Assembly: GCA_965214045.1 (NCBI GenBank) | Contig: OZ243935.1 | Coordinates: forward strand, 2,794,904-2,858,903 | DNA from: Candidatus Poribacteria bacterium | GTDB lineage: Bacteria > Poribacteria > WGA-4E > WGA-3G | Reading direction: 5' to 3' | DNA length: 64,000 nt | Shown: positions 16,290 to 40,546 of the stretch, piece after piece | Layout: every line of letters begins with the position of its first letter | Numbering within the stretch: position 1 is the first letter of the stretch | Notes under the pieces: model-generated | The model's database searches: none | Told to the model about the DNA's origin: nothing | The model's input: the letters and a program-made list of their open reading frames with translations, nothing else | Position numbers and translations under genes: made by a program

Positions 16290-17432
16290 TCAATCTCTTT
16301 GAGGATGCGTTAGAAGATGCGAATGAATATCCTCAAGGCTTTCCGCGGTGAGGCTCTTTTCAAAGAGGGCATCGAGCACGTCAGTGTTCTCGATGGCGGA
16401 AATCTCGATGCGTATCGCTTCGGGAACGTTCTGAAACTGGTGTTGTAGGAACTTCAGGAGTGCCGCCTGTTTGGCGCGGGTTTCCCCTTGTTCGATGCCT
16501 TGTTCGATGCCTTGTTGAAGTCCGCGTTGTTCGCTGAGCTCTATAATGGATTCAGCCATGTCTACAATCTCCCTATTTTGCGTATGCGCTTGGGTGAGGA
16601 TATCGAGTAAGTCTTGGTGTTCACCAGCACTTCTGCGGTGGAGGATGAAGAGAAAGAGATACAAGATCGCCCGTGTATACTGATCCGGCGTGTTCGCCTG
16701 CAAGTCGGCAAGCCCTCGTAACGCCTCAAGGAGTGCGGCTCGCATGACAGATGGATCGGAGTTCTCGTGCTTCAGGACAGCCAAAAGCCACCCCAAGGGG
16801 TCCCCCGTTTGGGTCAACGCGTCGGGGTGCGTGGCTTTGACATCAAGCAGCAATGTGTCGAAAGTGGGGACGAACCGATTCAGCACTTCAGGGATGTCCA
16901 TGACAGCGGTCAAAGAGATCGGGACGTTCCATTCTCCTGTCCCGGTGTAAAAGACGATCGGCAAGATCGGGGTCAACTGCCACTCCGTCTGTGGTTGCGA
17001 TGCCGCTATCCACTGCCGGCGCTCCTCCATCCATATCTGCGTCATGTAAGACAGCACCCGCAAGCCCATGGACGGGTCCACGGTGGATTGGTGCTCTATC
17101 AGCAGGTAGATGATCACTTCCGGATGCGTCTGCCTCGGCGACCGAAACGGCACGCTGAAGACCATATCGGATTCTTGGGTCCGCAGTTCATCGGAGATGA
17201 AACTCCGGTTGAGTTGCTCGACCCGCGCAAAGTCAAGTGCCTCGGCGACATCACCGGCAACCATTTTCAGCAACGCTTCGAGATGTTCGCGCTGCCGGAG
17301 CAACCATTTCGCACTTCTATCCGGGAAGTGGTGGCTCGACATCTCCGACAACTCCCGAAGGTCTCGTTCTCTGAACATTTCTTCGCCTCTTCTGAAACGG
17401 ATACACCCTGACACGGGGCGCACGCTTCTCAC
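16290..17432 (-). CDS. Rpn-family recombination-promoting nuclease / putative transposase (PD-(D/E)XK, C-terminal DUF4351)
   Basis: 380 aa. DMVFSVPF...EVIIYLLIEHQSTVDPSMGLRVLSYMTQIW core. C-terminal QQGIEQGIEQGETRAKQAALLKFL repeat typical of DUF4351. Confidence 0.65.
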   Translation of the reverse strand: MRSVRPVSGCIRFRRGEEMFRERDLRELSEMSSHHFPDRSAKWLLRQREHLEALLKMVAGDVAEALDFARVEQLNRSFISDELRTQESDMVFSVPFRSPRQTHPEVIIYLLIEHQSTVDPSMGLRVLSYMTQIWMEERRQWIAASQPQTEWQLTPILPIVFYTGTGEWNVPISLTAVMDIPEVLNRFVPTFDTLLLDVKATHPDALTQTGDPLGWLLAVLKHENSDPSVMRAALLEALRGLADLQANTPDQYTRAILYLFLFILHRRSAGEHQDLLDILTQAHTQNREIVDMAESIIELSEQRGLQQGIEQGIEQGETRAKQAALLKFLQHQFQNVPEAIRIEISAIENTDVLDALFEKSLTAESLEDIHSHLLTHPQRD

Positions 17433-18540: not shown

Positions 18541-21500
18541 TTACTTCAATATTACCATCTTGCGCATCAACGACATCGCGTCGGTTTCCAACTGGTAGAA
18601 ATAAATTCCGCTCGCAACCTGTTCGCCGAGCGCATTCCGACCGTCCCAATACGCCGCACGATCCCGACCCACGTAGTAGCCAGCTGACTGATGACCCAAC
18701 TGCAACGTCCGGATCACAGCACCTTGGGCGTTGTATATCGTGAGACGCACATCGGTATCTGTCGCCAACTCGTAGGGAATCCACGTCTCGGGGTTGAACG
18801 GATTCGGATAGTTCGCCAGCAACTGCGTCTGCTCTGGACGTGCCGTCGCGATGAGCTGCTGCAGGTAAATCAGCGTCCGCATCGCCGCAGGGGACCGATC
18901 CCCCGTCGCAATCAACAGATCGATCTGTTCTTGGAGAACATCTACCTGCACGGCACTCAACTGCATGCCAAGAACCGTCGGCGCACTCGCGGCACCCTCG
19001 TCACGGTTATCGAAAACGAGGAGGAGATCCAGGAAGTTGACCGTGCCGTCGTTGTTGACATCGTATTTCGCGTTGCTCGTTCCCATCGCCTCTGAGACTA
19101 AACCTGCGTCCATGTTATCCACAGTGCCGTCGCCATTAACATCGTATTTTGCGTTATCAGCGGTCGTCGTCGTTGTGGTTGTCGTTGTCGCCGCAGGTGC
19201 CGCGATGCTGTTGCTCAGCACCATGTCACCCGGACTCCCTAACCCGTCAACGACATTCGAGACACCAGACCCGTCAACCGACGAACTCTGGATCCTGCCA
19301 CGCGAGTTCGTCCAGAACAACTTGCCACGCGAACTATCGAGACCGATACCGATCGGCACCGCAAAGATCGAAGCGACATCCGTGATACCGCTACCGTTGA
19401 GATTCGCAGACTTGATCCGACCGCCATTTTCACCCGTCTCTTCCGTCCAGTAGACTTTACCGCCACCGATCACGAGACTCCCCGCAGCATCGGCACCATT
19501 GGAGATATTACGCACCTGTTTTTGACCCTTGAGACTCGCAAACCCGATGCCACCGTTGCTATGCGTCCAATACACATTACCCCCCGCAAGTCCGATATCC
19601 AGGGGACTCGTCAGGTTCTGGAGAACGTTTTCGACGCGTCCGGAACCATCAGCGTTCAGGCTCTGGATTCTGCCCCGTGAGTTCGTCCAGTAGAGGAGAT
19701 TCGCGGTGGTGTCGACGGTAATCCCCATCGGGACCGCCATGATGGCTTTGAGTTCCTTGATGCCGGTGCCGTCGAGATGTGCGCTGTTGATCGTGCCAGC
19801 ACTGTCACCCGTTTTCTCCGTCCAATAGACCGTATCGCCACCGATCGCGAGGCTCAGCGCGTTATCCACAGTCGGTGCGAACCGTTGCACGTCTGTATCC
19901 ACGAGTGCGTAAATCGCGCCATTGTCTACCCAGAGCATCGGTGGACGTTTCGCGGCTGCGGTATGCACAACCGGGCTGATCGTGTCGGAGCCTGTGTCGG
20001 TATCGCGTGTCGTCGGGGTCGCAGCACCACCACTCGCTGTGATCGTAAACGTAACGCGCCGCGTCACACCGCTCGCTTCCGCTTCAACCGTGCTACTTGC
20101 GCTGATCGGGGTATACGGTGCGCGTGCATAGCCGTTAGTATCGGTTTGGAGCGCGATCGCACGTCCGTTGCCGCGTTCTGAAAGCCGTCCCTGTCCCGTG
20201 CGGACTCTGAAGATAACTCTCGTCTCAGCGACGGCATCCCCGTCATCATCAAGAACTCTGACGAGCAGCGGTGCGTCGAGAGCCGTATTCGCTGTGCCGC
20301 TGCGTGTCGATTGACCGGCGATCTGGAGACTACTCGGTTCACTAACAGTTGGTGTGGTTGTTGTCGGTGTTGTCGGTGTTGTCGGGTCCGGTGTGGTATC
20401 AGTTGTCGTGGTAGTTGTTGCACCCGCGGTGAATGTAACCTGCCGGGACGTATACCCCGTGGCACTGACCGTCAAGATATAGGTGCCCGTGGCGGGAACT
20501 GAGACGATTGCCCGACCGCTCCCGGTCGTCAATATCTCACCGCTACCGACGCGAACGCCGCCACGGGTCACTGTAAACGCTACGGTGCGACTCGGCGCAG
20601 AACTTGCCCTTACGAGAATCTGTTGCTGGAGACCTGTCTGGGCACCGTCTTTAGAGACAGTGAGCGTGCCGAGTGCCTGTGGTGCTTCGACAGTCACAGA
20701 AATCTGTCTATCGGTATATCCACTCGCACTGACAGTGAGAATATAATTGGCTGCTGTCCTCGGAAGCGTAATCGTCCGAACCGTGCCGGAACCCGAGACC
20801 GCGCCACCTGCCGATGTGAAACCGGAACTGCCTTGGACCCGAACTGTTGCGGTGCCTGCCCCGACGGTAATATCCTGTGCGGAACCAGGCGCGCCACTGA
20901 GACTCGTTGACGAAACCGAAATGGTGTTGGTTGGCGGTGGTGTGTCGTCCTCATTACCACTACCGCCACTGCCTGCGTTTCCACTGCGATCGCTTCCAGT
21001 ATAGGTAAAGGATATCTCTGCGCCTTTCTTATTCGGATCCTGACCGGAAACAGTAGCTCTCACGACGCTGACACCTTTGTTACTGAGAAATACTCGCGCA
21101 ACTTTGGATCTTGCGAGGAACTTACCGGGGGGAGTTTCGGCCCCATCCGATGTTCTTTCAAATACAGTTCCAGGACCTGAAATAACTTCATATTGAATCA
21201 GAACAGTGTCCGAAGTATCGGTCCCTGTCAGATCAAAAAAATGATCTATCCGATAAGGTTCTGTTCCATGATATTTATCATCGTCTGGAGCATCAATACC
21301 CGTAACATTCTTATTCTCGTCCACGACATAAAGCGTAAACTCAATATAAGCTCGTTGCGAAGGAACTGTAGTCCACGGTGTGTCTTCTAAAGGGGTAGCA
21401 TCTGTGATTCTGACCTTATACGTTCCTGTTGTATCAGCCCCACCTGGAGTACATACTAAAGTGACCGACCTTGGAAGACCGTTAGGGTCAATTATAGGAT

Positions 21501-22257
21501 CTTCCTTTAGGTCTGTAATGGGGGTCTGGAAACTTGAAGCCTTCAGTTTGAAGGTCATCGCAGAGTCTGCCGAACCATCCTTGTTAACACTAATCGTGAT
21601 TCGCTCTTGATTGTAATGGTATCGTTTAGCGTCGAGTACGCGGGGTGCAAATTCCTCTTGTTCTATTCTTACTCGACTCCCTGCCTGAGCAGTGACCGGT
21701 CTGACATCATTCTCATCATTAAAATCACCATCTGCGGGGCTACTATTATCTACCCCCTCAACAGCATCTCTGTAGTAGTAAAGGGCAAGTCCGCTATTGT
21801 CGTAAGCATACTTACTGCTATCAGCAAATATGGCTGTGCTGTCTGGGGTTATATAATCACTGCCACGCTTTGCTCGTATAGGAGAAGCGTGACTCGTCGG
21901 AGCACGATCCTGTAAGGCACTGATGGTGGCAGTAGTCTCAGTATTTCGACGATCTACACCGTTCTTTGATGTGACAAGATACCCTTGGGCATCAATTCGC
22001 CGTGCCTCACCAGTTGTACCATCATCAATTAGCTTGTTATCACTGTTCCTGATAGGCGTGGTATTCGACCGAGTTCCGACAGTAAATGATATCTCAAACG
22101 GCCCGTCTGTTGCTGATTTCGTCTGGAGATCGCCAGATGTCTTCCTTAAAGGTAAGTGTTCTGCTTCTGCAACACCCTGCACACCCAACGCCAATACAAA
22201 TGCCATCAGCAGTCCGATATATCCCTTCCGTGTCAAAAATTGTGTCTTCACAATCAT
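18541..22257 (-). CDS. Giant secreted multidomain surface protein: Ig-like (Big) repeats, T/P-rich linker, YWTD-type beta-propeller repeats, two dockerin-type Ca-binding repeats, T9SS/FlgD-Ig-type C-terminal sorting domain
   Basis: 1238 aa. Signal peptide. Repeated ~90-aa Ig-like units (TGTYILTVSATGYTSRQVTF). Repeated (K/N)(V/L)YWT(D/E/N) blades. AKYDVNGDGTVDNMD and AKYDVNNDGTVNFLD. C-terminus LANYPNPFNPETWIPYEL...IYFYQLE. Confidence 0.7.
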   Translation of the reverse strand: MIVKTQFLTRKGYIGLLMAFVLALGVQGVAEAEHLPLRKTSGDLQTKSATDGPFEISFTVGTRSNTTPIRNSDNKLIDDGTTGEARRIDAQGYLVTSKNGVDRRNTETTATISALQDRAPTSHASPIRAKRGSDYITPDSTAIFADSSKYAYDNSGLALYYYRDAVEGVDNSSPADGDFNDENDVRPVTAQAGSRVRIEQEEFAPRVLDAKRYHYNQERITISVNKDGSADSAMTFKLKASSFQTPITDLKEDPIIDPNGLPRSVTLVCTPGGADTTGTYKVRITDATPLEDTPWTTVPSQRAYIEFTLYVVDENKNVTGIDAPDDDKYHGTEPYRIDHFFDLTGTDTSDTVLIQYEVISGPGTVFERTSDGAETPPGKFLARSKVARVFLSNKGVSVVRATVSGQDPNKKGAEISFTYTGSDRSGNAGSGGSGNEDDTPPPTNTISVSSTSLSGAPGSAQDITVGAGTATVRVQGSSGFTSAGGAVSGSGTVRTITLPRTAANYILTVSASGYTDRQISVTVEAPQALGTLTVSKDGAQTGLQQQILVRASSAPSRTVAFTVTRGGVRVGSGEILTTGSGRAIVSVPATGTYILTVSATGYTSRQVTFTAGATTTTTTDTTPDPTTPTTPTTTTPTVSEPSSLQIAGQSTRSGTANTALDAPLLVRVLDDDGDAVAETRVIFRVRTGQGRLSERGNGRAIALQTDTNGYARAPYTPISASSTVEAEASGVTRRVTFTITASGGAATPTTRDTDTGSDTISPVVHTAAAKRPPMLWVDNGAIYALVDTDVQRFAPTVDNALSLAIGGDTVYWTEKTGDSAGTINSAHLDGTGIKELKAIMAVPMGITVDTTANLLYWTNSRGRIQSLNADGSGRVENVLQNLTSPLDIGLAGGNVYWTHSNGGIGFASLKGQKQVRNISNGADAAGSLVIGGGKVYWTEETGENGGRIKSANLNGSGITDVASIFAVPIGIGLDSSRGKLFWTNSRGRIQSSSVDGSGVSNVVDGLGSPGDMVLSNSIAAPAATTTTTTTTTADNAKYDVNGDGTVDNMDAGLVSEAMGTSNAKYDVNNDGTVNFLDLLLVFDNRDEGAASAPTVLGMQLSAVQVDVLQEQIDLLIATGDRSPAAMRTLIYLQQLIATARPEQTQLLANYPNPFNPETWIPYELATDTDVRLTIYNAQGAVIRTLQLGHQSAGYYVGRDRAAYWDGRNALGEQVASGIYFYQLETDAMSLMRKMVILK

Positions 22258-22502: not shown

Positions 22503-25500
22503 CTACTCATTGGACGTTTTGAGTTCACCCCACGTGGCGGTGAGTTTGCCAGCAGCACCGATATGCCCTCTGAGGCGTGTGCCGTGGGTCAGCGTCTGAC
22601 GATTCCCATCGAGGGACACGTCTTCAATTTGGTAGTAGTATACGACATTGGGTTGCGCAGTGCTATCCGTGTAGGTATAGAACTGCTTCTCTGATGTTGT
22701 GCCAGCACCGGCGACCATTGTGGCATTGATGACTTGGAACTGTCCGTCGCGTTGCTGTGAACGCTTGATGAAGAATCCAGCGTTGTTCAGCTCTGACTGT
22801 GTGGACCAGGTAATCACCACTTGACCGGTCTCTGCGTTGCGCACCGGACGGAAGTGTGAGAGTTCAACGGGGAGTGCGCCACCGGCTCTGAAGCCCGGTG
22901 TACCGACATCGTTCATCGCACCGTAGTAACTGCTCGCCCGGACGTGTGTCGCTTGTGCGAAACTCGTATCGGAGGCGAGTGCCCAACTCTCCATCATTGC
23001 GCCGTCTTCTGGCTCCGCAGGACCGATAGAGACCGGAATGTGTCTACGGATAATAGAACTCCGTCCACCTTCATCACTCATCGGCAATGCCCAAGTAGCA
23101 GCACCATCAGCACCGAGGTTGCCTGCCATATCCGTGGCGGCTGTGTGAGCTGCCATGGCTTTCAAGTCAGACGCTTTCGCTGCGGCTTTCTGTGCTGCCG
23201 TTGCGGTTGCGGCGACGACTGTTGCCTTCGGAGCGGGGGGTGCGAGGACGATTTCAAACGCCATATCACTCAAGAGCGAGTAGCGGCGTTTCGTCACACC
23301 TGCGAGAATCAGTTCCGTCTGACCGGCTTGCCAGAGATTCAGAACCTGACCGCTCGCCGCAGGGACGTTATTCCGACCGATTTCCGTGACAACGAGGAGC
23401 GTTGACGGCGACTCATTCTGAGCACTCGGCATAATCTTCGTGCCTTCGGGGATCGTGAACATGATAGACGCACCGACAGAAACATCAGCATCTGCGACTG
23501 CGTTATTCACGGTCAACGTCCATCCGGAGAGATTGACCTCTTCCGTGCGGGAACCGTTGGAAATCTCAATCCACTGTGGCAGTGTGCCACCACCTGCGAA
23601 CATCACTTCACTGACATAGATAGCACCGACTGCTGGGACCATGACAGACGTATCCGCGGCTTTTGCGGCTGCGGCTGCATCTGCAGCGGCTTTCGCTTTT
23701 GCGGCGGCTTCCATCGCTGCCATTTCAGCAGGAGTCGTCTGATGGGCGGCTCCTGGTGTTCCGACACGGATACCTTGGATACCTAACTTGAAGTTGGCAC
23801 CCGGCGGCGTAGACGCCGTCCAACTCGAAGCCATTGTGCCGTCCGCGTATGCGCTTGTCGTCGCATCCATCACACGGCGCATCGAGACAATCGGCGTAAC
23901 AGGACCTGGAGCAACAGTGATCTCAATGTCTTCTTTTACTTCGAGAGGCGTGCCACTCGTCCCGCTTTGACCTTTACCCAGGATAGACCAATAAACATCC
24001 CTTGCGACTGCTGGGGCTGTGCCACCCGCAGCGACTGCGGCTGCAGCTATTGATGCTGCTGATGTTTTCGTACCGACACGGTCCTGGAGAACACCATCGG
24101 TATAGGACGCAGGCGGTGTCTCATTCGCGGCATAGAACCACAACTTCCATTTATTTTCACCAACAGCGATGGCGGTCGCAGTGCTATTCGCGATCTCTAT
24201 CCATTGACTCTTGGTAACAGGATTCAGACTCGAATCCGTGCCCCACATAATCTCACTGATATGGGCACTGCCTGCCGCCGTGCCATCATAAGAAACGAGA
24301 TCAATCGTCCCATTATTCAGAAGGAACGACTCTAAGTTCGGAACACTTCCAGAACCTCTGACATTGAATAACAATTGCGCATCTGACTGCTTGGCAGCGA
24401 TGTTCTCATCGTCTTTTTCATGAGAGGCGTTGATACCCGACCCAGCTTTATCTCTCGTCAGCAAGTAATAGCCATTCGCAGGAATCATCGCAGCTTCTTC
24501 GTGCCGTAAGGAAAGCGGAGTTCCGGCTGGTTTCGCTGCTGCTGCTGCTGCTGGATTGTTGGTCTTGACCATCAGAACATCTCTGCCTGCGACGAGAGCA
24601 CTGTCAGCCGCCCGAATATACATTTCTTGAGCACTACCAGCAGGAGGTTTCTCCATACCCGCAAAATCCGTGACTTTGATGGTAACATCCTTGGCACCTT
24701 CTGCCTTTGTTTTCAGAGTGACGAGATAGAGATGGACCATACCATCTCGCCAACTCGGAACACTCGCTTCCATCTCAATTCCGGCCTGGTTCGCATCCTG
24801 GGTTCTGTTAATAACCATTGGTGGCGTTACTGGCGATGCTAACTTAACAACCGAAGCAACAGTTGCGTTATCTCCAACGTCAATGAGGTCTTTGACAGCC
24901 TCTTTCGGTTTTTCGCTCAACAGCACATGAACCATAAATTCAGCGGAAGTGACCTCTGCGTAGGGTTCACCAACCCTTGCGATCTTCAAAACATCTGGTA
25001 GCAATGTGGGAGGGGTATTTTCAGCACCTGGATTTGCTGGATATAGATTAATAGTCGCCTTTAATTCGTTGCTCTTCTTATCCTTCAGTCTAATCGTGTC
25101 AGTAGCACCAATAGCCTTATCGGCTATGAACAACTCTAGAGAAGTTGTGCCTGCGTCGATAGTGTTAGGTGCAAACGTAAGGCTAACCATCTTAGTTTTA
25201 GAACCATCAACAGTAGGGGCCAATTTCTCAATGAATCCATTTTCACCATAAGCATTGACCGTAATTTCATCCGTAACCGTCACTGCCTCGGCGAAGTTGA
25301 GCGTCAACTCAAGTTCTGCCGTTGCATCGAACTCAAGTTGCAAGCCATCGGCATTGCCTATATCATTCATCATGTCAAGTGACACGCCGAAGTCCCCCGC
25401 TATTGCGGAAGGGGCGACAAAAGCCAAAGCAAGTATAGTGATTAAACTCATTAACGAAACTGTCATTTTCTTCGACAACATTCGTTTAATCTCCTTGTTC

Positions 25501-25526
25501 TTATGTGGAATAAAATTTTGAAACAT
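22503..25526 (-). CDS. Large secreted protein with two lamin-tail-domain-like (LTD) modules and a C-terminal beta-sandwich domain ending ...KLTATWGELKTSNE
   Basis: 1007 aa. Signal peptide. LTD-like blocks AHISEIMWG...QWIEIANST and IYVSEVMFAGGGTLPQWIEISNGSRTEEVNLSGWTL. C-terminal LPVELSHF...VITWSTQSELNNAGFFIKRS module. Confidence 0.55.
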   Translation of the reverse strand: MFQNFIPHKNKEIKRMLSKKMTVSLMSLITILALAFVAPSAIAGDFGVSLDMMNDIGNADGLQLEFDATAELELTLNFAEAVTVTDEITVNAYGENGFIEKLAPTVDGSKTKMVSLTFAPNTIDAGTTSLELFIADKAIGATDTIRLKDKKSNELKATINLYPANPGAENTPPTLLPDVLKIARVGEPYAEVTSAEFMVHVLLSEKPKEAVKDLIDVGDNATVASVVKLASPVTPPMVINRTQDANQAGIEMEASVPSWRDGMVHLYLVTLKTKAEGAKDVTIKVTDFAGMEKPPAGSAQEMYIRAADSALVAGRDVLMVKTNNPAAAAAAKPAGTPLSLRHEEAAMIPANGYYLLTRDKAGSGINASHEKDDENIAAKQSDAQLLFNVRGSGSVPNLESFLLNNGTIDLVSYDGTAAGSAHISEIMWGTDSSLNPVTKSQWIEIANSTATAIAVGENKWKLWFYAANETPPASYTDGVLQDRVGTKTSAASIAAAAVAAGGTAPAVARDVYWSILGKGQSGTSGTPLEVKEDIEITVAPGPVTPIVSMRRVMDATTSAYADGTMASSWTASTPPGANFKLGIQGIRVGTPGAAHQTTPAEMAAMEAAAKAKAAADAAAAAKAADTSVMVPAVGAIYVSEVMFAGGGTLPQWIEISNGSRTEEVNLSGWTLTVNNAVADADVSVGASIMFTIPEGTKIMPSAQNESPSTLLVVTEIGRNNVPAASGQVLNLWQAGQTELILAGVTKRRYSLLSDMAFEIVLAPPAPKATVVAATATAAQKAAAKASDLKAMAAHTAATDMAGNLGADGAATWALPMSDEGGRSSIIRRHIPVSIGPAEPEDGAMMESWALASDTSFAQATHVRASSYYGAMNDVGTPGFRAGGALPVELSHFRPVRNAETGQVVITWSTQSELNNAGFFIKRSQQRDGQFQVINATMVAGAGTTSEKQFYTYTDSTAQPNVVYYYQIEDVSLDGNRQTLTHGTRLRGHIGAAGKLTATWGELKTSNE

Positions 25527-25931
25527 AAACCTAAAACCTGTAAGAGTTGTTAGTTCTTAACCGATGCCTAACACCTCTTCTGAAATGAAGAACGGATCCA
25601 GGGATTGTAAATCCATTCACATTTGAACTTAACCTTTTATACCTTTTGTTAATTTCGGCAGAAGATCGGTCAGATTTTAAGGCATCCGCAGGAGTCAGAA
25701 ATGTCGCGAGCGGGAGATATACCTTAATATATACAGGATTTACGCAAAATTACAGAATTACGCGTACCACCACGCGGAGGGCGCGGTTTGATGAAAGGCC
25801 CCCACCAGGGAATTACGTAAGTCTTATAGATGGAGCGGCAGGAAGTGTTGAAGTTTCAATGAATATTAGGAGTCCTGATGTAGAAGGATTTCGCGTTTTT
25901 TGGTGAGTTATACATTTTTTTGTATTTTAAT

Positions 25932-25960
25932 TTGACAAAATGCGTTAAAAAGTGTATAAT
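25932..25960 (+). promoter_or_regulatory. Consensus sigma70 promoter, copy 1 (TTGACA-17 bp-TATAAT)
   Basis: TTGACA at 25932-25937, 17-bp spacer, TATAAT at 25955-25960. Confidence 0.55.
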
Positions 25961-26053
25961 TAATAAAATAAAGGGTTGAAACGCGAGTTTTTCACAATTT
26001 TCACTGTAAATTTCGCGTTTTTTGGTGAGTTATACATTTTTTTGTATTTTAAT

Positions 26054-26082
26054 TTGACAAAATGCGTTAAAGAGTGTATAAT
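26054..26082 (+). promoter_or_regulatory. Consensus sigma70 promoter, copy 2 (TTGACA-17 bp-TATAAT), proximal to the small HTH gene
   Basis: TTGACA at 26054-26059, TATAAT at 26077-26082. AAGGA RBS 9 nt before the ATG at 26141. Confidence 0.6.
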
Positions 26083-26140
26083 TAATAGCATAAAGGGTTG
26101 AAGCGCGATGTTTTTCACACAATTACGTAAGGAATGCACG

Positions 26141-26434
26141 ATGCGCCGCTTAAACACAAAGACGATTTTGACTGCCTGTGAGATGTCCTTCAACGGGAAA
26201 CCTGACCATGAAATAGCGGCTGATTTAGGTGCCTCTGTTTCAGCAGTCTCCCGGTGGCGGAAGCATGAGATATGGCAAGAGTTTGAGAAAGAGCTCATAT
26301 CGACACATAAGCAGTCGTTGTTAGAAGCGCATCGGTCAACAACCCTTGAAGAGAGCACACCTTCAGGTGTGCGAAACATGCAAAAGGTATATTTTGTTAG
26401 GTTCGGCAGTCCCTTCCCTCTCTTGGCTGCGTAA
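26141..26434 (+). CDS. Small helix-turn-helix protein (terminase-small-subunit / HTH_23-like N-terminus)
   Basis: 97 aa from the ATG at 26141 (the track ORF starts at 26108). ILTACEMSFNGKPDHEIAADLGASVSAVSRWRK is a typical HTH. Good RBS. Confidence 0.4.
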   Translation: MRRLNTKTILTACEMSFNGKPDHEIAADLGASVSAVSRWRKHEIWQEFEKELISTHKQSLLEAHRSTTLEESTPSGVRNMQKVYFVRFGSPFPLLAA

Positions 26435-26742
26435 ATTTTTCGCTCTTTCCTTTTTCAACGGGGCCTCACCCCTGATTCCCCTAATTTTCCCAAATATCCG
26501 CGTTCTCTACGATTCTGACAATCACCAAAATATTTATAGTAAAACCCACGATTAAGTTTACACGCTGTAATGTGCCGACCGTAGGTTTTCATTAGAAATT
26601 GCGTAAGTCCTATCTAAAACGCGTTTGCGTAAATCTATTGAATATGCCATAATAGATGTATTTTATTACCTATCCCCCGTCAAAGCCCCATGCTTTAGCT
26701 TGCGGGATGTAGACGGCGTTTAGGGGTGTCGTAAAAATAAAC

Positions 26743-26772
26743 TTGACAAAAACTCTAAAAATCCGGTATAAT
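26743..26772 (+). promoter_or_regulatory. Near-consensus sigma70 promoter (TTGACA-18 bp-TATAAT) with no convincing ORF downstream
   Basis: TTGACA at 26743-26748, TATAAT at 26767-26772. Downstream are paired stems (GGATAGG...CCTATCC, AACGG...CCGTT). Confidence 0.5.
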
Positions 26773-27102
26773 TATATTAATCGTTGGATAGGAAAGCAAG
26801 CACCTGCAAACCTTGCGGGTGTCCTATCCGCCTACTTGCTTGGGTTGAACGATGAACGGTTATTCCCGTTAATACCACATTCGGATTATACATTTTGGGT
26901 TATGATCCCCAGTTCGTTTCGTGATGAGTTCTGCCTCGCTTTATAGGATTGTGGCGGTGTTCCCTCCACAACTGCGAAAATGTCAGAACACTATAGAATC
27001 AAAGTATCGGTATATCTTAGGGAGTTTATCAAGATATTCCGTAGTCGGACGTTGGCTGGTCCCACAATCCTTTTGCAGATTGTGTCACCCGAGAAGTTTC
27101 TA

Positions 27103-27145
27103 TTCACGAAAAAAGCCCGATGAAACTTCACAAAAATCGGGGAGC
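27103..27145 (-). terminator. Rho-independent terminator on the minus strand (CCCCGAT-loop-ATCGGG followed by CTTTTTTC)
   Basis: Read on the minus strand the hairpin is followed by a T6 run. It lies 370 bp downstream of the PhyH paralog, or it ends an unannotated minus-strand sRNA. Confidence 0.45.
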
Positions 27146-27511
27146 GTGCTATAAGCCGTAAAAGTGTACCCACCGACTGAAACAGGATCGGCAGTTGAAG
27201 AAACCCCCTTGCTTCAGCTGGGGGAGCAGTCATGTGATGTCTTCAGCGGTAAGGTTGAATGAAGATTAAAGAATCAGATAATCGACGGCAATAAATGGTT
27301 TCCCTACTACGAACAGTTCGCTTGTAGTAGTACTATTTATAGCATGTAGACTTACGCACGATGCTCTTTTGTAGCGCAAACTGTTAGTTTGCGTCTCTGC
27401 GCGTATTACTTTTTTAGGGGTTCGTAATCTAACAGATCGGATTACGCTCAAAACTGCGGAAGTCCTGTTCTTATTGTAAAATCTCATCTACCAATTAGGG
27501 GATAAAATTCC

Positions 27512-28249
27512 TTAATTTTCTTCAGCTATAACATAAGGACGGTTGCCGATGGATGGCGGCTTCAACATCCGTTTCTGTTGCTCCGTTAACCCGTCGTATT
27601 TACTGATGTCGTAGTAGTTACCCGCCCACGCGGAGTGTCCAGGACTATATTTATAGAGCAATGACCGGCGTTGATGTTTTGCTGTCCACGGCATCGTCCC
27701 GTGAACGAGTGCTTCCGTGAAGAAGAGCACGTCTCCTGCTTCCAGTGCCGGTTGGACGACGTAGTGCGTTGAACGTTCAAATCGACGGACTTCCGATGGG
27801 ATTTCCCGGAGAAAGTTGCTCTTATGACTTCCCGGAATACAAGCGAAACCGCCCGCGCCTTCCGGTGCATCTGCCAAATTATAGGTCATCACGCATAACC
27901 CATTCCGCATAACCCCGTCTCGGTATTTGTACCAGTGATCGCCTTCGGGACCACCCGGTCTACCGCCATCTTCACCGCCATGTAATCCACCGCGTCCTTG
28001 TCCCGCTTCCAAGAAGATGGCGTAGTCGTGGTCGAGACGAACGTGCGGACCCAATAAGTCTATGAGATACGGCAGGATCTTCGGATGATCGATCAATCTC
28101 CTAAACGGATCACCCCAGAGACTTGGCGGTCCTTGACGTTCTGTATTATCGATAATCTCGTTCATTTCAGCGACTTCATCATCGGTCAAGACGTTCTTTA
28201 TGATAAGGTAGCCTTCAAGGTCTACTGTAAATTTTTCTTCACCAGTCAT
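27512..28249 (-). CDS. Phytanoyl-CoA dioxygenase family protein (tandem paralog 1)
   Basis: 245 aa. PhyH pattern (HVRLDHDY...IPGSHK...HGTMPW). ~80% identical to 28445..29179. Confidence 0.65.
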   Translation of the reverse strand: MTGEEKFTVDLEGYLIIKNVLTDDEVAEMNEIIDNTERQGPPSLWGDPFRRLIDHPKILPYLIDLLGPHVRLDHDYAIFLEAGQGRGGLHGGEDGGRPGGPEGDHWYKYRDGVMRNGLCVMTYNLADAPEGAGGFACIPGSHKSNFLREIPSEVRRFERSTHYVVQPALEAGDVLFFTEALVHGTMPWTAKHQRRSLLYKYSPGHSAWAGNYYDISKYDGLTEQQKRMLKPPSIGNRPYVIAEEN

Positions 28250-28444: not shown

Positions 28445-29179
28445 TCAATCTTCTTCTATCACGCGAGGACGGCGTCCGATGGATGGTGGCAACAACATCC
28501 GTTTCTGCTGCTCCGTCAACCCATTGTATTTGCTGATGTCGTAATAGTTCTCCGCCCATGAAGAGTGTCCGGGACTGTATTTATAGAGCACAGACCGACG
28601 TTCATGATCGGCTGTCCACGGCATCGTTCCGTGGATAAGTGCTTCTGTGAAAAAGATTACATCTCCCGCTTCAGCAGGCGGTTGGAGGACGTAGTGTGCC
28701 GGACGCTCGAATCGGCGGACTTCTGTAGGGATTTCCGGTCCAAAGTTGGTTTTATGGCTTCCGGGAATACAGGCGAACCCACCTGCACCTGCTGGCGCAT
28801 CTGCCAGATTATAGGTCATCACGGACAGTCCATTCCGCATAACCCCGTCTCGGTATTTGTACCAGTGATCGCCGACGTTTCCACCAGCGCGTCCACCGTC
28901 CTCACCACCGTGCAGTCCGCCGCGACCTTGCCCTTTCTCCATGAAGAGGGCATAGTCGTGGTCAAGTCGGACATACGGTCCGAGCAGTTCGATGAGATAG
29001 GGTAAGATTTTCGGGTGATCGATGAGCCGTTTGAACGGTTCACCCCAGAGACTCGGCGGTCCTTCGATATCTCCGTTGTCGATAATAGCGTTCATCTCAG
29101 CGATTTCATCGTCGGTCAGAACGTTCTTTATAACGAGATAGCCTTCGAGGTCTACCTGAAATTTTTCTTCACCAGTCAT
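28445..29179 (-). CDS. Phytanoyl-CoA dioxygenase family protein (tandem paralog 2)
   Basis: 244 aa. Collinear paralog of 27512..28249. Confidence 0.65.
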   Translation of the reverse strand: MTGEEKFQVDLEGYLVIKNVLTDDEIAEMNAIIDNGDIEGPPSLWGEPFKRLIDHPKILPYLIELLGPYVRLDHDYALFMEKGQGRGGLHGGEDGGRAGGNVGDHWYKYRDGVMRNGLSVMTYNLADAPAGAGGFACIPGSHKTNFGPEIPTEVRRFERPAHYVLQPPAEAGDVIFFTEALIHGTMPWTADHERRSVLYKYSPGHSSWAENYYDISKYNGLTEQQKRMLLPPSIGRRPRVIEED

Positions 29180-31308: not shown

Positions 31309-31506
31309 TGTTGCTTATTCCCAAGCCCCAGCGGGGCAGCATGTCTGTAGCAACGCGTCCGACCGCACGTCTAAAGCCCCAGCGGGGCGACATGTCTGTA
31401 GCAGCGCGACCAGTCCTATTTTCCCAAGCCCCAGCGGGGCGGCATGTCTGTAGCAGCGCGATCAGTCCTATTTCCCAAGCCCCAGCGGGGCGACATGTCT
31501 GTAGCT
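31309..31506. repeat. Tandem array (3.5-4 units, period ~51-52 bp) of AAGCCCCAGCGGGGCGACATGTCTGTAGCAGCGCG with ~16-bp TCCTATTTCCC-type linkers
   Basis: Copies at 31323, 31374, 31426 and 31477. Linkers are nearly identical to each other, so this is not CRISPR-like. Same family as 5994-6086. Confidence 0.8.
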
Positions 31507-31806: not shown

Positions 31807-32892
31807 TCAACTTAACGCTTGTTGTAGACTTGCTTCAACCCCTTCAGCTGGTAATAGGCGTATCATTTCATCTGCCATCGCTTTTCCACCTACTTCTCCT
31901 GTTCTTCCTTCGTATTCACCATCCTTGCGCCAATCTATTTCTGATGCAGCTTTTACTAAACGTCTGACGTTGTCCCAATTCATACCTATTTCCTCGTTGT
32001 AGCTCCGCGAGAAAATTTGTGCCCCGGTATACGACCAAGCTATCAGACCTGTGAGCTCAAGGAGTTTGTACTCAAAAGCGTTTCTGCGACTGCCCTTTAT
32101 TTCAGGATCATCGAGTTTTTCAATATCTGCCCATTCTTCATGAAGATGGTCAGCGATTATCGTCCAGAGCTCGGACATGTACTCGGTTTTCTGATCAACA
32201 TCTAAATCTTGAACTCCTCCGAGTCCAAATAGGCGCGTAACTTGCTTTGCCACACTATGGAGAGCAAATAGATGTGTACGCTGCATTGATGTCTTTGTAA
32301 TCCTTCCTTTAAAGGGACTGTCATCTCGTTCATTAAGTTCCCATCCGACTTGTGCTTCTGGTTTCCCTTCAAGGTAAGCTGTTAGAGGTTTGGGTACTCC
32401 TTTTTGGTTGTCGTTGACATTGATGAATTCTTTTGCTTCTTGTTCAGGAGTGAGATTTGGAAGCAGAATGAAGGAAACTTCGCGTACATCACTGTCAGAT
32501 TCATACAGCTCTACAAAGCCACCAAGACGATGTTGTCCATCAAGGATAGCGGCTTTTCCTCGAATGATAAGTTTTCCAGTATTTTGTCCTTCCCCATTTG
32601 GTTTGAATTGCCAGTTACCACGTCCGGAGAGCAGAACGGGTGGAACTATACTATCGGGGTATTCTGTGAGAAACTTCGCGACCTGTTTCATACGAGTTAG
32701 TGAACCAGGTCTCTGGTAACCCTCTTCCACGATTTCATTAAGACAAGTTTTACGACTGGATTCAATAACGGGGACAAATGTCACGTTCTTAACCTTATCA
32801 GATTTAATTGTTCCAAATAAGTACTTCTGATTGCCTTGAGTCTTCAGAATGACTCCTTTTATTTCCCCAATTGTATTCGTTTTATTAGTCAT
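31807..32892 (-). CDS. DGQHR-domain protein (DndB-like)
   Basis: 361 aa. Contains AILDGQHRLGG, the signature of the DndB/DGQHR family. Last gene of the minus-strand defense cluster. Confidence 0.7.
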   Translation of the reverse strand: MTNKTNTIGEIKGVILKTQGNQKYLFGTIKSDKVKNVTFVPVIESSRKTCLNEIVEEGYQRPGSLTRMKQVAKFLTEYPDSIVPPVLLSGRGNWQFKPNGEGQNTGKLIIRGKAAILDGQHRLGGFVELYESDSDVREVSFILLPNLTPEQEAKEFINVNDNQKGVPKPLTAYLEGKPEAQVGWELNERDDSPFKGRITKTSMQRTHLFALHSVAKQVTRLFGLGGVQDLDVDQKTEYMSELWTIIADHLHEEWADIEKLDDPEIKGSRRNAFEYKLLELTGLIAWSYTGAQIFSRSYNEEIGMNWDNVRRLVKAASEIDWRKDGEYEGRTGEVGGKAMADEMIRLLPAEGVEASLQQALS

Positions 32893-32936
32893 TGATTAAT
32901 TCTCCTCAATGCAAGTGCGGTGTCGGTTTAACGGAA

Positions 32937-33227
32937 TCATTCTAACGTTTCAACCTCGTAAGGTGCCATCTGTGTCGCATCCGTTTTGCGGACGCGAAAT
33001 TGGATGTCCTTAAAGAGTCCATCATTATTTTTTCTCAAGCTTTCAAGGGATTCCCCTAAGGAACGTGCTGATATGTAGAAGATATACTCAAGGTCATTGC
33101 TGATTTTTTTTACGTGAAGAATAGGGGCATACCCCTTAAATGTCAAAACAACATCCGGTTCAGAGATAATTTCCAATTCTATCCATCCGGTCCCGACTTT
33201 TAAAGGCGGTGGTAATTCTTGAGGCAT
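32937..33227 (-). CDS. Hypothetical small protein (96 aa) within the defense cluster
   Basis: ORF only. 8-bp gap to the upstream gene. No recognisable motif. Confidence 0.3.
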   Translation of the reverse strand: MPQELPPPLKVGTGWIELEIISEPDVVLTFKGYAPILHVKKISNDLEYIFYISARSLGESLESLRKNNDGLFKDIQFRVRKTDATQMAPYEVETLE

Positions 33228-33235
33228 AGTTTCTC

Positions 33236-33751
33236 CTATAGATCATGCAGTGCTTCGGCAAGCTGATTTTGAATCGCTTGTTCCTCTGTAACAGGTTCGG
33301 ATTGCAGTAGGTCGTCAAGGGCATCAGAAAGGTTCCATATCGGGCTTTCGGAGCCTTCGTTTAGCATTTTCACGATGTGGGGGACACCTGCAGCTGCCAG
33401 ACCGTTGGCGATGTCCATCATGCGACGCGGCTTAAGGACAACCTCTAAGTTTCCTTCAACGGCTATCGCAATTAACATGATCGCTTGCGCCTGCCAGCCA
33501 TCCGTGTCAAAAATATTACCGCTAATGATGCTAACAGTGTCCTTTTTCTTTTTTGTTAAATGCATCGGTTTAAGATTCTGACGCGCTGCCAGCGAGAGTC
33601 CGGCAAACCAGAGATCCACCTTTCGTGGAAACGGAGTCTTAGCGGCTTTCGCACCTGCTCCCGTTTGGCAGTAATGATCGTAGTCATCCCGCTGTATAGT
33701 AGGTGATATGATTTGCATATTGCGAAAAGGATTATCGTAGTGTTGTGCCAT
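33236..33751 (-). CDS. Hypothetical protein (171 aa) within the defense cluster
   Basis: ORF tightly packed between the DndD-like and the 96-aa gene (9-bp and 8-bp gaps). No recognisable motif. Confidence 0.35.
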   Translation of the reverse strand: MAQHYDNPFRNMQIISPTIQRDDYDHYCQTGAGAKAAKTPFPRKVDLWFAGLSLAARQNLKPMHLTKKKKDTVSIISGNIFDTDGWQAQAIMLIAIAVEGNLEVVLKPRRMMDIANGLAAAGVPHIVKMLNEGSESPIWNLSDALDDLLQSEPVTEEQAIQNQLAEALHDL

Positions 33752-33760
33752 AGTGATCTC

Positions 33761-35884
33761 CTAAGATTCCGGCTGGATTTCTACCTCAACATCCGTGCGT
33801 CGCTTGCAGCGTTCACATTCTCCGAGGTCCTGGCACTCACACCGGAGTGCCTGCGGTTCATTTATATGTGGATCGTTTACTAATATAGTGGGGTAGTGTG
33901 CCGAATTTGTAATGGTGATGATACGTCCTGCTTCATCTGCTATAATATCTTCACAGTCTTTAATTTCGGAACGCGTCAGAAAGAGGATCAGTTGTGCACT
34001 TTCTTGAACAGCTGTTTTGAGAACGGAACGTTTGACAAACCCGTCCATCATTCCGAGGGGTGTATCAATCACGTTTGGTGCTATAACTTCACTGACTTTG
34101 GTGAGGGCGAGAATAAACGCTACCGTCAATGCTCTCCGAGAGGCACCATTTAAATCTTCCCTGGGGTTCAAAGCGCGTTTATTGGGTCCATAGACGAGAA
34201 TATTAAAATCTGGACTGATTTCTGCTTTCTGGATGATTGCTCCCTGTTCAGCGTCCGCGCCGATCATTTCCAGAAAAAATGTGTTCATCAACCGACTCAC
34301 TTCTTGCAATTCTTCGTTTGTGATTCGTTCGTATGAATTTTCAAGGATTTGCTCTATATCGCGCGTGGCATCTAATCTGGCTAATATTCCTTCCCCTCTT
34401 CTCTGTTTACTTATAAGGTTATTATGTGTTGCTGTTAAGGATCTCTGACTTTTTTTCAGGCGGTCAAGTTCTATTTCGTGCTCTATATGGGTACCGTTCA
34501 AAGAATCGCGTTGAGCAATATAGTCTTGCTTAGTGGCGCGAAGTTCTTGAATGTCGGTATCCCCTATACTCTCAAGTTGGACTTCCAATACGCTGAGTTC
34601 TTTTTCCAATTCTACGCGTCGAGCTTCAAGTTCATCGCGAAGGATTGCGTTTCTCTTGTATTCAGCGATCCAGTGTTGCTCATGGCTAATCTCTATCGGT
34701 TTCAGCTCCAATGAACCGAAATAAAGACCGGTCAGACGTGTTTGAAGTTCATCTGTTTCCCGACTCTCGCTAATGAGTCGTTCGATATGCGCTCTGCGCC
34801 GCTGTCCGTCTTCCGAGTGTTGATCCAGGGACTCTCCACAAATGCAGGCAGGACCTGTGAGTCGTTCTTCAAGCACAGGAATCGTTGTTTTCGGCAGTTT
34901 ACCCTGGTTGCTGAGTTCATCCAATTTCTCAAAACTTTTTTCCAAAACCGGGGCGAGCAGATCTCGGAATAGCGGCGGCTTTCTGAAGAATTGTGACTGC
35001 TCAGAAACCAGTTTTTCCTCTTGATTTTTGATTCTTTTTAGTTCTGCTTCTGATTTTTGCAGTCCGCGATTAAGTTCTTCTTGGTCCCCCTTAAGCAACG
35101 CTGCTTCAATGTCTTTATCAATTTCCGTTAGACTGTGATTGACTGCATCAAATTGAAGTTTCGCATCATCTCTTTCCTTTTCAAGACGTTCAACCTTTTC
35201 ATCTATCTCCCCCAATTCTGTAGCGATTTCGACAAGTTCTGTATCGGTTCCGATATTCTTTGAATCTCTATTGAGTCCAGCCATTGTCTTTTTCAAGTGA
35301 TCGAGAGCAGTCTCAATCACATCAAGGCCTAACAATGATTGAATGGCTTCCTGAACCTGTTTACGCTTATCTGTTCGTGAGTCTGCTTCAATGAAACTCA
35401 GTGCCCTGTCTCCGTCGGTGAAAAATACTTCACGCAAATTAGAGGGGACCAGGAGTCTGGCGATCTGTGCATCTGGTGTAGGTATTGGGGTGCTCCCAGT
35501 TTCTGTCAGTTCAAACAATTCTATTTTCGGGTTTTGTCTGAGCCCCTCGGTTGTCTCCTCTACGGAACGAATGAGGCAGTAGCGACTTGTCTTATTTCTA
35601 TTTGCCTCTGATGCAGGTGTTTCAAAATCGACTTGCACAGATATCGGAATTGCTTGACCATCAGGGACATCCCAATCAATTGGAAATAGTCGGTGTCCTC
35701 TACCTTTATCCGGTAGGGCATCATCGCCGTAGAGAGCCCATTGTAGCGCGTTTAAAATGGTCGTTTTTCCGCTCTCATTGGAGGCGCGAATGACCGTGAG
35801 TTTTCTGTCGTCACTGGTCGAAAAATCTAATCTTAGGTCTCGTAGCAGTCGAAAGTTTTGAAATCTTGCCCTGATGAGTTTCAT
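33761..35884 (-). CDS. DndD-like SMC/ABC-type ATPase
   Basis: 707 aa. N-terminus MKLIRARFQNFRLLRDLRLDF...LTVIRASNESGKTTILNALQWALYGD matches the DndD/AAA_23 Walker A region. Long coiled-coil middle. C-terminal signature/D-loop region. Confidence 0.65.
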   Translation of the reverse strand: MKLIRARFQNFRLLRDLRLDFSTSDDRKLTVIRASNESGKTTILNALQWALYGDDALPDKGRGHRLFPIDWDVPDGQAIPISVQVDFETPASEANRNKTSRYCLIRSVEETTEGLRQNPKIELFELTETGSTPIPTPDAQIARLLVPSNLREVFFTDGDRALSFIEADSRTDKRKQVQEAIQSLLGLDVIETALDHLKKTMAGLNRDSKNIGTDTELVEIATELGEIDEKVERLEKERDDAKLQFDAVNHSLTEIDKDIEAALLKGDQEELNRGLQKSEAELKRIKNQEEKLVSEQSQFFRKPPLFRDLLAPVLEKSFEKLDELSNQGKLPKTTIPVLEERLTGPACICGESLDQHSEDGQRRRAHIERLISESRETDELQTRLTGLYFGSLELKPIEISHEQHWIAEYKRNAILRDELEARRVELEKELSVLEVQLESIGDTDIQELRATKQDYIAQRDSLNGTHIEHEIELDRLKKSQRSLTATHNNLISKQRRGEGILARLDATRDIEQILENSYERITNEELQEVSRLMNTFFLEMIGADAEQGAIIQKAEISPDFNILVYGPNKRALNPREDLNGASRRALTVAFILALTKVSEVIAPNVIDTPLGMMDGFVKRSVLKTAVQESAQLILFLTRSEIKDCEDIIADEAGRIITITNSAHYPTILVNDPHINEPQALRCECQDLGECERCKRRTDVEVEIQPES

Positions 35885-36126
35885 TGCGTAACCTCTGTCG
35901 TTGGGTTATCTGTATCACGTTTCCTCGCGAGAAAATCGCCAGCCTTATGGCATGCTTGGTTTACCTGTTTTTGAATGGTTGTTCTTTGTGCTTGATGTTC
36001 TCTCTCGGCACTGAGGATTTCAACGATTGCCTCAAGCACTTTTTTCCTGTAGCCGTCGCATCTTTCCTCAATAGATTCACATTCATTGAGAATCATCTTT
36101 ACCATTTTTTCCTTGTTATATGACAT
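35881..36126 (-). CDS. Hypothetical small protein (81 aa), translationally coupled (ATGA overlap) to the DndD-like ATPase
   Basis: ORF only. 4-bp overlap with the downstream gene start. Confidence 0.3.
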   Translation of the reverse strand: MSYNKEKMVKMILNECESIEERCDGYRKKVLEAIVEILSAEREHQAQRTTIQKQVNQACHKAGDFLARKRDTDNPTTEVTQ

Positions 36127-36137
36127 AATCTCCTCCG

Positions 36138-38282: not shown

Positions 38283-38318
38283 ATTGGTTTACAGGTATAG
38301 AAATTGATGTGATTAAAA

Positions 38319-39572
38319 TCAGTGTTGGTTTGCCCCTTTGCGAGCGTTACATTGTCTGCAAAGTGTTTGGGCGTTTTCAAGAGTTGTTTTCCCACCATCC
38401 GCGTGAGGAGTTATGTGATCAGCTTCCATTTTATCAAATTCGATTTTTTGGTTGCATCCTTGACAAGTCTCATTGTCTCTACGCCAAATCACAATTCGTT
38501 CGTCACGAGAGAAAGCACGTTGTGAGTCTTTTCGCACTAAGTGCTGGATGTCTCGGAGGAATCGTCTTTTATATACTTCATGTCGCTTTTCGAGGTTAGG
38601 TTTTGTCCCACCTGAGCGGATGAAAGCTTCAATGTAATCATACATATCTCTATCCCAAAGACTTTTGCCTGCAGCAAGTAATTCACTGGGATCTGATATA
38701 ACTGACCGCCTCTCTTCTTCAAAGGCAACGTAAAAATCAGCGAAGTCAATCTCGTGATCTCGGATAACATAGGACTTATTCATTTCCGAAATTAGTAAAT
38801 ATAAGTCTACAAAGCCCCACTTAACGTCCATGTCGGGAGGACGATTTTCCAAAACTTTTTCCATATATCCTAAGTGCCGTCGAACTTTTTTGGCAACAGA
38901 TCCATTGTGGTCAAAATTCTGATTATTCCTGTACATTTTGGTGAGACTCGGTGCCTTGACATCCGTTGGTCCTTGTGCTATCTCCAGACGCGTTACTACA
39001 GCGGCCAGGTCATGCCACCCAAATCTCTTTTCTGAAAGGAAGGTTAATGGAAAAACACGATGGTTATCTCCTAAGTTTGCTATGAAATCTCGCATTTTAC
39101 CCGGCATAGCGTTTCGTTTTTCTACAGGATTCAAAGACAGTCCTTCTTGCAATCTTAGAAAAAGATCTCGTATATCTAAATCTGATGCATCCTCAACCTC
39201 AACTAAATTAAGCTCAAATATTGCAAATTGATCCTGAATATCGCTTGGCAATTCTGAGAATTTCTTACCTGATAAGTCCCCAAAATTAGGTATGTCTCTT
39301 GATGCTTCACCCAGGACATACTGATCATCATGGAAATCCCAAATAGCATTCAGCCTTTGCTGTCCATCAACAACCTCATGCTCATACTCAGAATCAGACG
39401 ATACTCGGAGGTAAAATTTGGGCATATCATATTGTCGAAGTATTGAGTCAATAAGCAATTGCTTTTTTGCCTCATTCCAAACTGGAGTCCGCTGATACTG
39501 AGGTCTTGGATTTATCTTTGGCTTCCTTCTGGCAATTGTTTCAATTGTCCAATGTCTTGGTCGAGTTTTCAT
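38319..39572 (-). CDS. DUF262 (ParB-like, DGQQR motif) plus C-terminal HNH nuclease; GmrSD / SspE-like
   Basis: 417 aa. N-terminal VVDGQQRLNAI. C-terminal CQGCNQKIEFDKMEADHITPHADGGKTTLENAQTLCRQCNARKG. Confidence 0.65.
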   Translation of the reverse strand: MKTRPRHWTIETIARRKPKINPRPQYQRTPVWNEAKKQLLIDSILRQYDMPKFYLRVSSDSEYEHEVVDGQQRLNAIWDFHDDQYVLGEASRDIPNFGDLSGKKFSELPSDIQDQFAIFELNLVEVEDASDLDIRDLFLRLQEGLSLNPVEKRNAMPGKMRDFIANLGDNHRVFPLTFLSEKRFGWHDLAAVVTRLEIAQGPTDVKAPSLTKMYRNNQNFDHNGSVAKKVRRHLGYMEKVLENRPPDMDVKWGFVDLYLLISEMNKSYVIRDHEIDFADFYVAFEEERRSVISDPSELLAAGKSLWDRDMYDYIEAFIRSGGTKPNLEKRHEVYKRRFLRDIQHLVRKDSQRAFSRDERIVIWRRDNETCQGCNQKIEFDKMEADHITPHADGGKTTLENAQTLCRQCNARKGANQH

Positions 39573-39621
39573 GGGTCAGCCCTACTCCGATTGCATAAAT
39601 AGATTCTGTGCAGTAGAAATA

Positions 39622-40473: not shown

Positions 40474-40546
40474 GTCTCCTCCTACGAGTCAGTTGTGCAG
40501 AGGCGTATAAAACACGAGGCACAACCGAACAGGGTATGCTACGGTG

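Follow-up and report, generated by a model that had tools for sequence, protein, structure and literature searches.

A candidate invertible promoter cassette beside a surface-protein operon in Candidatus Poribacteria

The cassette and its duplicated promoters

The subject of this study is a 732-bp segment of DNA in a stretch of 64,000 nucleotides (nt) from a Candidatus Poribacteria bacterium (contig OZ243935.1, positions 2,794,904 to 2,858,903). We refer to the whole stretch as the window and, unless another locus is named, give positions within it. The segment lies between two short inverted sites and carries two exact consensus promoters, P1 and P2, together with the gene of a small helix-turn-helix (HTH) protein; an operon for large surface proteins stands beside it. 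A related strain has this locus with the segment turned round, two further groups of loci show the same rearrangement, and we read the element as a probable promoter switch for the operon. Loci in other assemblies are denoted L001, L028 and so on, and individual proteins P0123 and so on. The features of the cassette as it stands in the window are these:

25630-25651, + strand: IRL, the left recombination site, TAACCTTT / TATACC / TTTTGTTA, one arm of an inverted-repeat pair, with the crossover mapped against L028; its exact 11-bp core, TATACCTTTTG, is at 25638-25648
25649-26380, no strand: the inverted 732-bp segment as defined by alignment with L028, with a conserved TATACCTTAATATATA box (25718), TTACGYAA motifs, both promoters and the HTH core
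25888-26119, + strand: tandem duplication of a 122-bp unit (1.9 copies) that bears both promoters and the T-tract regions upstream of them; found by repeat search and Tandem Repeats Finder (TRF), and kept in L001 and L028
25932-25960, + strand: promoter P1, TTGACA-17-TATAAT, 12/12 hexamer positions
26054-26082, + strand: promoter P2, TTGACA-17-TATAAT, 12/12, 87 nt upstream of the HTH ATG, a position conserved in the family
26141-26434, + strand: HTH gene, 97 amino acids (aa) in the window orientation, an open reading frame (ORF) that crosses IRR into flank C, and 83 aa when inverted; AAGGA lies upstream of the ATG
26355-26372, + strand: GCACACCTTCAGGTGTGC, a conserved palindrome in the last (3') part of the HTH core, a few bases short of IRR; hairpin of -12.7 kcal/mol, z -2.6
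26378-26399, + strand: IRR, the right recombination site, ATGCAAAA / GGTATA / TTTTGTTA, or TAACAAAA / TATACC / TTTTGCAT when read on the opposite strand, a site that lies inside the HTH ORF; its exact core, CAAAAGGTATA, is at 26381-26391
26392-26500, + strand: flank C, a conserved module of about 110 nt that in many loci borders the cassette on the side away from the gene

The initial annotation of this DNA had described a unit of about 122 bp, repeated head to tail, and two TTGACA-17-TATAAT promoters that both face a small HTH gene preceded by a ribosome-binding site, and each of these points was borne out. A repeat search returned two 105-nt copies (25888-25992 and 26010-26114) with 94% identity and a spacing of 122 nt, and TRF described 25888-26119 as 1.9 copies with a period of 122, 95% matches and no indels. 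Both promoters are exact, on the + strand, and the 97-aa ORF follows them. The copies differ at about six positions of the aligned 105 nt instead of the two or three first counted. The duplication had also been thought recent and had been flagged for a check against assembly error. The same two 122-bp copies are present in L001 and L028, independent assemblies of related strains (three strains when the window is included), so it is an old feature and not an error of assembly; in the clade to which the window belongs, tandem promoter copies recur with periods of 103, 122, 123 and 141 bp. In 23 of 28 tabulated loci a promoter with 11-12 of 12 hexamer matches and a conserved spacer precedes the HTH start by 85-88 nt (mostly 86 nt).

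The 64-kb window holds three exact promoter matches, where 0.02 would be expected, and none of 100 shuffled sequences reached three. The third, which had been missed earlier, has an 18-nt spacer (TTGACA-18-TATAAT) and lies on the + strand at 26743-26772. It shares the AAyTTGACAAAA and GTATAATTA context with P1 and P2. Because pieces of a cassette lie just upstream of it (26534-26578 matches L004 and L020, and 26624-26635 forms an inverted repeat with 25737-25748), the third promoter may be the relic of a second cassette. The non-coding stretch that follows (26743-26860) folds well (-42.9 kcal/mol, z -2.4), is conserved in L028 only and has no match in Rfam. A terminator-like hairpin downstream of P1 folds no better than shuffled sequence; the same was true of flank C, which has no significant fold.

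A segment found in both orientations

The orthologous locus in L028 aligns with the window in alternating directions. L028 4643-5508 matches window 27242-26381 in reverse (99.2%), 5485-6264 matches 25625-26404 forward (98.3%), 6241-6490 matches 25648-25399 in reverse (87%) and 8127-9693 matches 23729-22163 in reverse (98%). In L028 the HTH gene, the gene of an LTD-domain protein and the gene of a 1238-aa protein follow one another on the + strand. Compared base by base, the two loci change direction within the exact 11-bp core (TATACCTTTTG / CAAAAGGTATA), and both cassette junctions coincide with the inverted-repeat pair found in the window. Since IRR lies inside the HTH ORF, inversion changes the tail of the protein, from 97 aa, of which flank C supplies the last 14 codons and the stop, to 83 aa. 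A flip at the core predicts an ORF that ends after 83 aa, and P0123 (83 aa, from L028) is identical to residues 1-83 of the window protein. The two forms are mixed in three of the four multi-member clusters (90% identity) that we inspected.

The inversion is not peculiar to this locus. L029 and L030 form a second pair flipped at the same core, and in a third group L003 and L036 differ from L037 in the same way, with the outer flanks swapped and the inner flanks unchanged. The inversions come from independent samples (ERZ25070917, ERZ21830300, ERZ28654153, ERZ922800 and ERZ23491425) and from one metagenome-assembled genome (MAG) at NCBI. In most of the other loci, by blastn, sequence matching the leader and signal-peptide region of the minus-strand LTD gene follows the HTH gene and shares its strand, with flank C on the opposite side. 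The orthologous locus in L038, a circular genome of 4.83 Mb, has the orientation of the window and the right flank of L001. We take this right flank, common to L001 and L038, to be ancestral; both of these loci are, like the window, in the orientation that we call OFF below. The window and L028 (ON) have a derived right flank in common yet differ in orientation, so orientation is uncoupled from relatedness.

The recombination sites consist of an 8-bp half-site, an asymmetric 6-bp spacer and a second 8-bp half-site, and the C-side site of L028 is a perfect dyad, TAACAAAA / TATACC / TTTTGTTA. The spacer is TATACC in the window, L028 and L005, TACACC in L001, and CATACC in L003, L036, L037, L029 and L030. 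Although it varies between loci, it is identical in the two arms of every intact locus; the sole locus with mismatched spacers, L015, looks decayed. We read this layout as one that would suit a classical site-specific recombinase, of either the tyrosine or the serine class.

The four assemblies of this locus have three different right flanks, which diverge from window 26491 and 27243 onward: EutN and 5-FTHF cyclo-ligase genes in L001 and L038, other genes in L028, and PhyH genes with a defence island in the window. The site looks like a rearrangement hot spot. A hairpin, CCCCCTTGCTTCAGCTGGGGG (27196-27242), sits exactly where the similarity between the window and L028 stops (27242) and resembles sequence just downstream of a TnpB (IS605 OrfB) gene in L001. 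The resemblance is limited to a 27-nt hairpin, and tblastn of the window detected no TnpB remnant to the right of the cassette.

The HTH protein, the operon and their surroundings

The HTH protein belongs to a narrow family. It has 216 close matches, and among 1.84 billion representative sequences 328 match at E<=1e-3 and 55 at E<=1e-10; a core of about 74 aa is highly conserved. All 26 related loci in GTDB species genomes are from Candidatus Poribacteria MAGs, and an identical protein is encoded on ENA contig L001. A protein-based scan of JGI metagenomes gave five loci, all of the shorter HTH type, and a cassette-specific DNA pattern found no match there. The family is multi-copy: three other 97-aa paralogues (P0001, P0122 and P0009) appear to belong to the source genome, and one MAG has five loci, several of them at contig ends.

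An AlphaFold2 model of the protein has a three-helix HTH (residues 6-40), a long helix (43-71) and a disordered tail (71-97). Its match to HTH_23 is weak (E 2.6e-4, below the Pfam cut-off). The initial annotation had offered an Xis- or terminase-small-subunit-like protein, and a weak TerS-like similarity does exist: the best Foldseek match is 2ao9 (probability 0.99 but E 0.2, with generic HTH matches otherwise), which we take to be a phage TerS-like protein. All such matches are below their cut-offs (NCBIfam TerS, 18 bits against 120 and E about 1e-3; PHROG, E 1e-3 to 6e-3), and a sequence search of the PDB was uninformative. We ran the check for phage or integrative-element genes near the cassette and found none; the neighbours are surface-protein, PhyH and defence genes. 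With no hidden Markov model match above cut-off and no packaging or integration genes adjoining, we rejected both an origin in a phage or integrative element and membership of the terminase small subunits or excisionases.

Within the 600 nt that precede the HTH gene, TTACGC is enriched about 12-fold and TTACGYAA about 40-fold (22 loci, which are related and not independent), and in most family members one TTACGYAA box lies just downstream of the -10 hexamer. Because the promoters drive the HTH gene in both orientations, the protein is probably made constantly. Our best guess is that it autoregulates a very strong promoter; it could also serve as an accessory factor of the switch.

The operon and its leader occupy the other side of IRL, on the - strand:

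25482-25629, - strand: flank A, a conserved sequence that forms the LTD gene's 5' leader, with a terminator-like hairpin (25590-25618) followed by a U-rich run
22503-25481, - strand: first operon gene, a 992-aa LTD-domain protein (Pfam LTD, E 4e-12)
18541-22257, - strand: second operon gene, for a secreted protein of 1238 aa that has Dockerin and FlgD_ig domains and, at its C-terminus, a type A sorting domain of the type IX secretion system (T9SS) (Pfam, NCBIfam)

The sorting domain of the 1238-aa protein is matched by TIGR04183 (NCBIfam) at 37.3 bits, against a cut-off of 23. The true start of the LTD gene is the ATG at 25481, which is preceded by AAGGAG and opens a signal peptide conserved in the family (MLSKKMTVSL...). 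Leader, ribosome-binding site, start, signal peptide and promoter are conserved across about 30 loci. The LTD protein and its L028 orthologue are 98-100% identical over the last 330 or so residues and 26-50% identical over the N-terminal 600 or so. We read this N-terminal variability as what might be expected of an exposed, diversifying surface protein. The leader hairpin (minimum free energy -14.7 kcal/mol, z -1.4) is kept in 29 distinct sequences, in which all 10 pairs are retained and the changes are one-sided and compatible with pairing; it may act as an attenuator of transcripts that run on from the HTH gene into the operon. The two 12/12 consensus promoters lie inside the segment, and in the window orientation no promoter-like site was found that faces the LTD gene; for this reason we call the state of the window OFF.

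In L014 and L016 the cassette is bordered on either side by the conserved leader and the start of a gene, the two copies being inverted relative to each other. The arms of L016 are 195 nt long and 96% complementary, and the structure of both loci suggests that these cassettes act as a toggle between two genes. In L017 two cassettes lie 3.7 kb apart on one strand (3896-4216 and 7642-7965).

A recombinase gene was sought at the locus and elsewhere. The HTH protein (83/97 aa) is the product of the sole ORF in the segment and lacks a resolvase domain; the segment therefore contains no serine invertase of the Hin/Gin type. Only L029 encodes a tyrosine recombinase near its cassette (204 aa, at a distance of 2.2 kb), but the family of this protein, although very abundant (2948 matches), adjoins no other cassette. 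Genes of the Rpn/YhgA-like type (Transposase_31 and/or DUF4351) turn up close to cassettes in about six locus groups, and in several loci they stand beside flank C. Copies lie at 16290-17432 in the window, 5487-7743 in L037 and 2019-2963 in L015, the last of which has no Pfam match and is tied to these genes by BLAST alone; L037 has two such genes that are not present at the same locus in L036. The Rpn/YhgA-like family has been described as recombination-promoting nucleases, and we regard its recurrence as a lead only.

To the right of the non-coding tract, and directly next to it, are two adjoining paralogous genes for PhyH-like 2-oxoglutarate-Fe(II) dioxygenases on the - strand (27512-28249, 245 aa; 28445-29179, 244 aa). 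Further on, a run of genes on the - strand (31807-45032) has the character of a defence island: it encodes a DndB-like protein, an AAA_23 ATPase (707 aa), a PLD-domain helicase (714 aa), a GmrSD_N+HNH protein (417 aa), a PAPS-reductase-like protein (283 aa), a 1169-aa protein with no Pfam match and a DUF4007 protein (327 aa). The run presumably resembles a phosphorothioate system of the Ssp/Dnd type. An intergenic tandem repeat before the DndB-like gene (31318-31505; period 51 nt, 3.7 copies, 85% matches) has a small palindrome, CCCCAGCGGGG, in each unit. The whole window gave no Rfam match at the gathering threshold, nor did 25400-27600 at E<=1, and no tRNA or tmRNA genes were found in the window.

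A probable promoter switch and its relatives

Inverted repeats with an exact crossover between them, both orientations in three locus groups and a conserved promoter are what these loci present. We consider it probable, at roughly 75%, that the 732-bp segment is an inverton, an invertible promoter switch for the surface-protein operon, with the promoters and the HTH gene as its cargo. The initial annotation had seen the tandem promoters facing the HTH gene and had missed the invertible cassette beside the operon. Recombination within the shared 11-bp core would flip the segment. In the ON state, as in L028, P1 and P2 would transcribe the 83-aa form of the HTH gene, read through the leader hairpin and continue into the LTD-domain gene and then the gene of the T9SS-sorted 1238-aa protein. 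In the OFF state of the window the same promoters would transcribe the 97-aa form away from the operon and into the non-coding flank C. Genomes of Candidatus Poribacteria have several such cassettes, and each stands before a gene for a large secreted protein that shares this leader and signal peptide; where a cassette stands between two divergent secreted-protein genes it would operate as a toggle. Flipping would be ongoing and catalysed by a site-specific recombinase encoded elsewhere, the orientation would decide whether the operon is expressed, and the HTH protein would regulate its own promoter or assist the switch.

Several findings weigh against this interpretation. The 33-nt arms are 73% complementary and are exact over 11 bp only. 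No recombinase was found among the ORFs checked between 8.6 and 54 kb of the window, none consistently adjoins the cassette in other loci, and L038 has none within 10 kb. The two orientations were seen across different strains and not within one clonal population, and the ON and OFF assignments are drawn from the anatomy of the locus. Finally, the 29 distinct sequences of the leader hairpin contain no compensatory double changes.

Some of these points would suit an account in which rare rearrangements between short inverted repeats, illegitimate or RecA-dependent, became fixed with no programmed switch: both orientations are seen across strains and samples only, a dedicated recombinase was not found, and Rpn/YhgA-like genes recur near the cassettes. 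Such an account would have to place the crossover in the same 11-bp core in three independent locus groups, and the dyad half-site layout, a spacer kept equal between the arms while varying between loci and an orientation uncoupled from the relatedness of strains also speak against it. Eleven exact base pairs are, moreover, too short for efficient RecA recombination, and we hold fixed inversions to be unlikely. We give still less credence to the proposal closest to the initial annotation, in which the promoters are fixed, were recently duplicated and serve solely the high expression of a small regulator or of a phage Xis/TerS-like protein. Both promoters do face the HTH gene in either orientation, and the weak TerS-like matches could be cited in its favour. 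The inversion in L028 and the mapped crossover nevertheless contradict it as a full account; the two other inverted locus groups, the age and sharing of the duplication, the lack of phage genes nearby and family matches that all miss their cut-offs count against it as well.

Terminal inverted repeats, multiple copies and the frequent position of copies at contig ends would also be expected of a small non-autonomous transposon, or miniature inverted-repeat transposable element, that carried the promoter and HTH gene and inserted in either orientation. The cassette, however, is flanked by no duplication of a target site; immediately beyond the cores the two sides are inverted copies of each other (GAACYTAAC...) and not direct repeats, and its position is constant relative to the conserved leader of the secreted-protein gene. 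Independent insertion at an identical site and in both orientations in three locus groups is implausible, and we regard a transposon as very improbable. That the duplication, the inversion or both are artefacts seems least credible of all. The sequences do come from metagenome assemblies, but the two promoter copies occur in three of them and the inversions in independent samples, and repeats of 11-33 bp are much shorter than reads or assembly k-mers.

We also entertain, tentatively and with distinctly less confidence than the switch itself, a genome-wide system of antigenic variation. A shared trans-acting recombinase would flip portable modules, each made up of tandem consensus promoters, a conserved HTH gene and recombination sites, that stand before several hypervariable secreted or T9SS-sorted proteins. 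The cassette HTH protein would act on the switch: it might serve at the TAACAAAA half-sites as an accessory or directionality factor, or else use the TTACGYAA boxes for cross-regulation. Expression of the repertoire might in this way be coordinated.

Poribacteria are uncultured sponge symbionts whose surface presentation to host and phages is largely unknown, and a search of a full-text library found no relevant report that joins them with phase variation or with invertible elements. If the inverton interpretation is correct, their surface would be phase-variable, in the manner of gut Bacteroides and many pathogens. The cassette would also be useful as a compact natural part for studying and building orientation-dependent expression, because a DNA-binding gene and duplicated consensus promoters lie inside the flipping segment.

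The closest known counterparts of such a switch are found in other bacteria. In Bacteroides fragilis the promoters of the polysaccharide loci are invertible; they are flanked by fin sites, are served by the global invertase Mpi and have upxY/upxZ as the first genes of the loci. The cassettes described here are similar in that many promoter-bearing invertible segments with related inverted repeats occur per genome, each before a surface-structure operon, with a small regulator gene linked to each and a recombinase that is not encoded at each locus. Unlike the B. fragilis loci, they have their HTH gene inside the flipping segment with a C-terminus that depends on orientation, their promoters are tandemly duplicated, their targets are large secreted proteins instead of polysaccharide loci, and they belong to a different phylum. 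The H segment of Salmonella (hixL-hin-promoter-hixR), which controls fljBA, is likewise a segment of about 1 kb with a promoter and a gene between short, imperfect inverted sites that switches a downstream surface-protein operon. Its gene encodes a serine invertase, whereas the ORF in the cassette encodes an 83/97-aa HTH protein with no catalytic domain. The half-site TTAACAAAA may resemble the hix half-sites.

The fimS element of E. coli is a 314-bp promoter segment between 9-bp inverted repeats that is inverted by the tyrosine recombinases FimB and FimE. It shares with the cassette an ON/OFF inversion of a promoter and very short exact repeats, and the half-site and spacer layout of the cassette would fit a tyrosine recombinase. 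At fim the recombinase genes stand next to the switch, whereas none adjoins the cassette, and fimS contains no gene. In the sap inversion of Campylobacter fetus, which is mainly RecA-dependent, a promoter segment lies between opposed surface-protein genes with conserved 5' regions, as in the toggle-type cassettes L014 and L016 with their conserved gene starts on both sides; the window, in contrast, keeps one target gene, and its repeats are far too short for the sap mechanism. What is new when the cassette is set against known invertible promoters is the presence, inside the segment, of a conserved HTH gene that does not encode a recombinase together with duplicated consensus promoters, a recombination site that lies within that gene, a conserved non-coding flank C and membership of a multi-copy family restricted to Poribacteria.
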